From assembly GCF_003334315.1 (NCBI RefSeq), contig NZ_QOWR01000030.1: a stretch of 51,845 nt of DNA. One strand, given 5' to 3'. The notes below the pieces were generated by a model. That model did no database searches. It saw only the letters and a list, made by a program, of their open reading frames with translations, and had not been told where the DNA came from. Origin of the DNA: Escherichia coli (GTDB lineage: Bacteria; Pseudomonadota; Gammaproteobacteria; Enterobacterales; Enterobacteriaceae). Every line of letters begins with the position of its first letter. Position 1 is the first letter of the stretch. Of this stretch, positions 4,733 through 4,973 are shown one piece after another. Both the position numbers and the translations under genes were made by a program.

Positions 4733-4818
4733 GACGACTCCCTTTGATGAACCGATATTTTTGCTGCTTCACAATGCTTCGCTAAGCGTAATCATCGTTA
4801 CGCTCTTGTTATAAATGG

Positions 4819-4835
4819 GAATGGTAATCATTATT
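4819..4835. promoter_or_regulatory. candidate Fur box in the divergent yncE/yncD promoter region
   Basis: gaatggtaatcattatt closely resembles the Fur consensus GATAATGATAATCATTATC and lies upstream of a TonB-dependent receptor gene. Confidence 0.45.
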
Positions 4836-4973
4836 TTCTCAAATGTGGAGCATTTCTTGCCGTTACGACTACAATTTTCTCAATTACTTAACGTATTGTG
4901 CCGTTTCATTTTCCATAAATTTACAATTTCATTACCATGACGGCGTTTTCCCATTCTTAACCTGGCTTTTTTC

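Follow-up and report, generated by a model that had tools for sequence, protein, structure and literature searches.

A conserved Fur operator in the yncE-pqqU (yncD) spacer of Escherichia coli very probably serves yncE rather than the gene of the PQQ importer

In a 51,845-nucleotide stretch of Escherichia coli DNA (contig NZ_QOWR01000030.1 of assembly GCF_003334315.1), hereafter called the window, we analysed the spacer between yncE and the divergent gene pqqU, formerly yncD, and our results lead with high confidence to the view that positions 4811..4835 form the Fur operator of the yncE promoter, repressed by iron and Fur, and that this operator serves yncE rather than pqqU. Four lines of evidence carry this view, namely the sequence match, its conservation across species, the occupancy by Fur in vivo and the Fur-dependent expression of yncE, each of them documented either here or in the literature. 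The yncE operator is already known and the gene belongs to the core Fur regulon of E. coli; in fact the repression of yncE by Fur has stood in the literature since 2003 and has been borne out in many strains by ChIP, ChIP-exo, RNA-seq and Western blots, while PQQ was identified as the substrate of YncD in 2022. As a discovery our result carries little weight. What it offers is a correction: a Fur box beside the gene of a TonB-dependent receptor need not mean that the receptor is iron-regulated or iron-carrying, the operator in this case being very probably the neighbour's.

The segment 3600..7100 of the window is E. coli K-12 DNA with 100% identity to MG1655, and it was found in 5414 of 5426 complete E. 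coli genomes. The spacer itself occupies 4733..4973 (241 bp, 37% GC), is identical in W3110, MG1655 and the window, and lies between the following two genes.

3671..4732, minus strand: yncE, a 353-aa open reading frame annotated in RefSeq; a Sec-exported seven-bladed beta-propeller protein; the gene controlled by the operator.
4974..7076, plus strand: pqqU (formerly yncD), a 700-aa open reading frame annotated in RefSeq; a TonB-dependent outer-membrane importer of PQQ; the divergent neighbour.

Both products pass the cut-offs of their NCBIfam equivalogs, YncE that of NF052280 (561 bits against 400, residues 15-353) and PqqU that of NF041535 (1309.7 bits against 1200). The earlier note, made from the sequence without database searches, had placed a beta-propeller periplasmic protein and a TonB-dependent receptor on the two sides of the spacer, and by their reading frames, the RefSeq annotation and these equivalogs they are yncE and pqqU. 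Insertion elements occur in this locus in two E. coli genomes. In strain EC6 (NZ_CP182398.1) the match to the spacer ends at query position 227, where an IS5 transposase is annotated, so that the element would sit some 14 nt ahead of the start codon of pqqU (window ~4959/4960); in NZ_LS992171.1 an IS1 is inserted inside the segment equivalent to 3600..7100. Moreover, the starts of yncE and hrpA (4732..46301) lie 41,569 bp apart in the window and 40,246 bp apart in NC_000913.3, so that about 1.3 kb of extra DNA, the size of an insertion element, lies somewhere between the two genes as compared with the MG1655 reference.

Within the spacer, gaatggtaatcattatt sits at 4819..4835, exactly where the earlier note had put it, and it belongs to a longer element in which two overlapping Fur sites can be recognized.

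4817..4835, no strand assigned: main Fur box, the 19-mer GGGAATGGTAATCATTATT, being that 17-mer plus two bases; 15/19 consensus matches; 17.24 bits.
4811..4829, no strand assigned: second Fur site, ATAAATGGGAATGGTAATC; 15.71 bits; overlaps the main box, shifted by exactly 6 bp.

Compared with the Fur consensus GATAATGATAATCATTATC, GGGAATGGTAATCATTATT agrees at 15 of 19 positions, with G for A at positions 2 and 8 and G for T at position 3 among its departures, one of the four mismatches to the textbook consensus being a G for A at a central position. A consensus search of the window with at most three mismatches gave no match, since the site carries four. Considering this, the description of the site as a near-consensus Fur box is fair, if slightly generous in its wording, and the box is real. 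Together the two sites make up the hexamer array ATAAAT GGGAAT GGTAAT C ATTATT, and the composite NNNAATGNGAATRGTAATCATTATT, conserved across species, has the overlapping 6-bp register of sites for two Fur dimers. Overlapping hexamer sites in such a register are typical of Fur operators.

The scores given here come from a position weight matrix (PWM) refined from the best site in each of 17 established Fur-controlled regulatory regions of MG1655, namely fhuA, fepA-fes, fepD-entS, fepB-entC, fiu, fhuE, tonB, sufA, cirA, mntH, nrdH, exbB, nfeF, feoA, ryhB, fhuF and yddA, with yncE left out and fecI not used. The known sites score 13.0-25.7 bits in training and 7.6-24.2 bits (17.0 +/- 5.3) when each is left out of it, and the yncE box with its 17.24 bits falls in the middle of this range, as the PWM scan proposed in the earlier note was meant to find out. 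Both strands of the whole window together offer 103,654 positions, among which it ranks second, and when the AT-rich spacer is shuffled 5000 times with its dinucleotides preserved, only 12 of the shuffled sequences score as high; by rank and shuffle test the box is thus well beyond chance.

Two other high PWM scores in the window are worth recording. The top score of all (21.1 bits) belongs to GGAAGTGATAATGATTTTT at 45615..45633, inside the 1300-aa hrpA reading frame (42399..46301, minus strand), and among the Fur ChIP-exo peaks of MG1655 published by Gao et al. 2023 (PMC10164565) none is listed at this place. This match is probably a coincidence of coding sequence, which indicates that a high PWM score alone is no proof of function. 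A further fairly high match, GCTAATGACAGTGATTACG, lies on the minus strand at 39903..39921 with 14.3 bits.

The conservation of the element was followed in a scan with one genome per species, which gave 80 yncE loci at 71-98% protein identity, 78 of them with enough upstream sequence, from Escherichia, Citrobacter, Salmonella, Enterobacter, Klebsiella, Raoultella, Kluyvera, Leclercia, Lelliottia, Atlantibacter and other genera. Of these 78 Enterobacteriaceae loci, 77 carry a Fur match scoring 10 bits or more and 68 one of 14 bits or more, placed between 40 and 105 nt ahead of the yncE start codon; the centres of the former fall at 43-97 nt, and in nearly all loci at 84-97 nt. The core [AG]NTAATCATTA[TA][TG] was likewise found in 77 of the 78 species. 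When the 300 nt upstream of yncE are aligned, the most conserved 19-mer is 4815..4833, with a mean identity to the E. coli base of 0.893, as compared with 0.850 for the ribosome-binding and start region of yncE and 0.597 for the whole spacer. In many other species it is the register of the second site (4811..4829) that scores top, for example GATAATGAGAATAGTAATC with 21.6 bits.

To which of the two genes the box belongs can be judged from the genomes that have lost pqqU. In nine Citrobacter loci pqqU is absent beside yncE and the Fur box is retained; directly upstream of yncE and in the same orientation there is curA in five of these loci, an mcbR-like gene stands upstream in three, and the remaining one shows only a distal partial curA match. 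Similarly in E. albertii, where pqqU is reduced to fragments (residues 25-56 and 523-700), the box is retained, and all of these species without intact pqqU keep it at the same distance from yncE. This argues that the operator travels with yncE and belongs to it; it also follows that the PQQ importer is dispensable in some lineages, which have lost pqqU and kept a Fur-controlled yncE. In the pqqU-proximal half of the spacer, the best Fur-like matches score poorly, with a median of 7.1 bits, and their sequences differ between species.

In vivo data on Fur binding are available from several published studies, which supply the Fur ChIP suggested as a check of the site. Gao et al. 2023 (PMC10164565) report a 13-bp Fur ChIP-exo peak of W3110 at 1524928-1524940 under iron-replete conditions (condition 'R'), which by the W3110 annotation and an exact sequence match maps to 4813..4825 of the window, inside both PWM sites. 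Their MG1655 peak at 1521238-1521250, given in an older coordinate system, maps to the same positions 4813..4825. Moreover, Fur was reportedly bound upstream of yncE in the MG1655 ChIP data of Beauchene et al. 2015, and Banerjee et al. 2020 place yncE within the conserved direct Fur regulon of CFT073. We looked for an in vitro Fur footprint or gel shift on the yncE promoter and found none in the accessible literature.

Two peculiarities of the MG1655 sheet in Supplementary Dataset 2 of PMC10164565 should be mentioned. Its gene and transcription-unit columns appear to be displaced by one row from P37 onwards, as checked against tonB, sufA and the W3110 sheet; as printed, the peak 1521238-1521250 stands with adhP, the peak 1520944-1520980 with yncE, and the peak upstream of tonB with acnA. 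We rejected the printed pairing of peaks and genes on the ground of this displacement, and any reuse of the table calls for the peaks to be mapped again. The peak 1520944-1520980 (older coordinates), which is intragenic and was not seen by Seo et al., converts to 5083..5119 of the window, 110-146 nt inside pqqU, and the best PWM match nearby has 5.6 bits (5054..5072).

The expression data separate the two genes clearly. In the delta-fur RNA-seq of PMC10164565, yncE rises by log2 3.10 in MG1655 and 8.14 in W3110, with six further strains at 3.6-5.5, that is, a derepression of 8- to 280-fold. In agreement with this, a fur mutant overproduces YncE in the Western blot of Moriel et al. 2016, who attribute the original observation of iron and Fur repression of yncE to McHugh et al. 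2003. For yncD, in contrast, the same RNA-seq gives no change in MG1655 (log2 0.12, p 0.39) and a rise in only two of the nine strains, W3110 (log2 2.95, p 2.7e-51) and 042 (log2 2.02), so that the gene is counted in the Fur regulons of these two and is not listed as a Fur target in the other seven. Grinter and Lithgow 2020 describe YncD as not regulated by Fur and not induced by iron, and older transcriptome and ChIP studies are quoted to the effect that yncD responds to neither. It had been predicted that the box stands for iron-repressed divergent transcription, and this holds for yncE, with its log2 of 3.1-8.1 in eight strains and the Western blot, but not for pqqU, which is flat in MG1655 and rises modestly in two of nine strains. 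Since W3110 and MG1655 have the identical spacer and differ in their pqqU response, the difference is not encoded in cis. The response in W3110 delta-fur may be indirect, given that yncE transcription is about 280-fold higher there; on the other hand, the listing of pqqU in the W3110 and 042 regulons means that the operator may not be strictly one-sided.

For the arrangement of the promoters, the spacer offers two candidates, both recognized by hexamer similarity and conservation.

4821..4849, minus strand: candidate sigma-70 promoter of yncE, -35 TCCACA (4849..4844), 17 nt, -10 TACCAT (4826..4821); predicted start ~4814.
4910..4938, plus strand: speculative candidate promoter of pqqU, TTTCCA, 17 nt, TACCAT; 8/12 matches; conservation 0.72 and 0.79.

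The candidate yncE promoter, with 8/12 hexamer matches below the threshold of our promoter scan, would put the main box at about -4 to -22. Among the pairs in the spacer with at least 8/12 matches, TCCACA-17-TACCAT is the best conserved (0.90 and 0.83), where the conservation of the -10 hexamer is inseparable from that of the Fur box itself, and where the conserved GCTCCACATT block, lying outside the Fur box, argues for a separate element. We looked for a mapped transcription start of yncE and found none in the accessible literature, Chen 2007 making no mention of yncE. According to the Reg-Seq supplement, RegulonDB has a MarA site at -41.5 of yncEp, and a marbox-like 19-mer centred at ~4854 would fit a start near 4813. 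On the pqqU side, the candidate promoter overlaps the weak Fur-like match at 4918..4936 (8.5 bits); its start would lie at ~4945, over 100 bp away from the box, which would explain why pqqU shows no consistent Fur effect. An inverted repeat that separates the Fur box from the start of yncE at 4785..4804, AGCGTAA-TCATCG-TTACGCT, looked like a terminator in the scan and was rejected as a functional element, being poorly conserved.

Altogether we propose that, when iron is sufficient, Fe2+-Fur dimers bind the overlapping array of GATAAT-like hexamers, with its two 19-bp sites 6 bp apart, and that the bound Fur would cover the -10 hexamer and the spacer of the candidate yncE promoter and so exclude RNA polymerase, the promoter position and the occlusion being what we infer. 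To cover the -10 hexamer and the spacer in this way is the classical geometry of Fur. When iron becomes scarce, Fur departs and transcription of yncE becomes strong. The divergent pqqU, about 150 bp away, would use a promoter region of its own and shows at most a weak and inconsistent effect of Fur. Moreover, RyhB, itself repressed by Fur, probably boosts the yncE mRNA further, and this would make a coherent feed-forward loop.

For the latter point the presumed leader of yncE contains a suitable block.

4763..4781, minus strand: conserved stretch of the presumed leader of yncE, with complementarity to RyhB nt 41-58.

The leader block (4762..4780) has a mean identity of 0.73, and the predicted local duplex with RyhB at 4781..4763 amounts to -20 kcal/mol; by this complementarity the block may be where RyhB pairs when it activates yncE, an activation that Wang et al. 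2015 found with a yncE-lacZ translational fusion. CopraRNA is reported to rank the RyhB-yncE interaction poorly. A duplex of the full-length RyhB with the leader (-39 kcal/mol) was discarded as unrealistically long, and the local seed pairing was kept.

The most serious competitor of the reading preferred here is that the operator is truly bidirectional, the same Fur array repressing both yncE and pqqU and making PQQ import iron-responsive, which is the model of the earlier note less its siderophore. We consider it unlikely. It can appeal to the W3110 ChIP-exo peak, a single one that PMC10164565 assigns to both yncD and yncE, and to the rise of yncD in W3110 and 042; yet MG1655 with the identical spacer stays flat, seven of nine strains do not have yncD among the listed targets, the earlier transcriptome and ChIP work, as it is cited, saw no response, and the W3110 effect itself is about 35-fold smaller than that on yncE and could be indirect, through supercoiling or the very strong divergent transcription. 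With the plus-strand promoter-like element TTCACA-16-AATCAT (4768..4795), pqqU would have a long leader that carries the box at ~+15 to +33, and a review lists yncD/yncE among the head-to-head pairs with possibly overlapping UTRs; however, the plus-strand match, the sole one of our promoter scan in the spacer, is no more than chance would give (1 found, 1.1 expected). The 8.5-bit match at 4918..4936 lies over the other candidate pqqU promoter, though as a class the pqqU-proximal Fur-like sites are weak and unconserved, and the box follows yncE where pqqU is lost. A restricted form, in which PQQ import, too, comes under iron control through the yncE operator, though only in some strain backgrounds or conditions (W3110, 042) and not in MG1655 with its identical cis sequence, seems to us slightly less probable still; if it were true, the conserved pairing of yncE and pqqU would reflect a functional connection of iron limitation with the periplasmic oxidation of glucose that depends on PQQ. 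For a functional link of yncE and pqqU in general the evidence here speaks neither in favour nor against: the yncE deletion has no PQQ phenotype, and the box is kept in species without pqqU.

The block could also be conserved mainly as the -10 region of yncE or as a site of MarA, SoxS or Rob, its resemblance to a Fur box being secondary. The putative -10 TACCAT does lie inside the box, and RegulonDB is reported to list for yncEp the MarA site, of weak confidence, and no Fur site. But conservation spans the whole 19-25 bp of the hexamer array rather than 6 bp, where species differ, the exchanged bases for the most part leave the Fur PWM score as high or make it higher (GATAATGAGAATAATAATC, for instance, reaches 24.3 bits), ChIP-exo puts Fur on the block, and the MarA site, so far as the Reg-Seq supplement tells, was not recovered by Reg-Seq. 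Besides, the two roles are compatible, as overlap of operator and -10 is how Fur represses, and we hold the exclusive version to be very improbable. Hardly credible at all is a functionless match by chance in AT-rich DNA, for which one may cite the 37% GC of the spacer, the few shuffles that reach the score and the better score in hrpA where a ChIP peak is not listed; conservation, occupancy and expression all contradict it, and the ChIP-exo and delta-fur data refute it in practice. The Fur operator of yncE is therefore the reading that we retain.

The substrate of the neighbouring receptor leads to the same correction. The earlier note suggested for YncD a siderophore or metal substrate as yet unidentified, and this suggestion is refuted. 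Hantke and Friz 2022 identified YncD as a TonB-dependent receptor of PQQ and renamed it PqqU, Munder et al. 2025 determined the structure of PqqU with PQQ bound, and Grinter and Lithgow 2020 found that YncD gives no support to growth under iron limitation or on ferric citrate; with PQQ shown as the substrate, a high-affinity importer of PQQ has superseded the siderophore or metal receptor. The equivalog match, the genetics of PQQ uptake, the structure and the missing Fur response in MG1655 all speak against YncD as a siderophore or metal receptor under Fur. In the same study by Hantke and Friz the deletion of yncE had no effect on PQQ-dependent growth, and the authors speculated that YncE could be a gluconolactonase or another helper of PQQ-dependent glucose oxidation.

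Compared with known systems, the yncE operator resembles the classical Fur boxes of fhuF, ryhB, nfeF, cirA, fhuA and fepB-entC in its 19-bp AT-rich palindrome-like element of GATAAT-type hexamers in a 6-bp register, and likewise in iron-replete binding and derepression in delta-fur; unlike the classical iron-uptake targets of Fur, yncE has no known role in iron acquisition. With fepA-fes, fepD-entS and fepB-entC it shares the arrangement of a divergent pair with a Fur site in the common spacer. However, in the enterobactin cluster both units are iron-repressed, whereas in yncE/pqqU only yncE responds consistently and the box survives the loss of pqqU. Another parallel is cirA, whose transcription is, like that of yncE, repressed by Fur and whose mRNA is activated by RyhB, and the two genes have been validated as RyhB-activated genes linked to Fur or iron; in contrast to this cirA-type control by Fur and RyhB, the putative pairing site of yncE is here one of complementarity alone, to RyhB nt 41-58. 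As for the receptor, PqqU finds its counterpart in BtuB, the other non-iron TonB-dependent transporter of E. coli K-12, in that it likewise imports a scarce organic cofactor and like BtuB has been reported neither Fur-regulated nor iron-induced. Unlike BtuB, pqqU adjoins the strong Fur operator of its neighbour, and is thus easily mistaken for the gene of an iron-regulated receptor.
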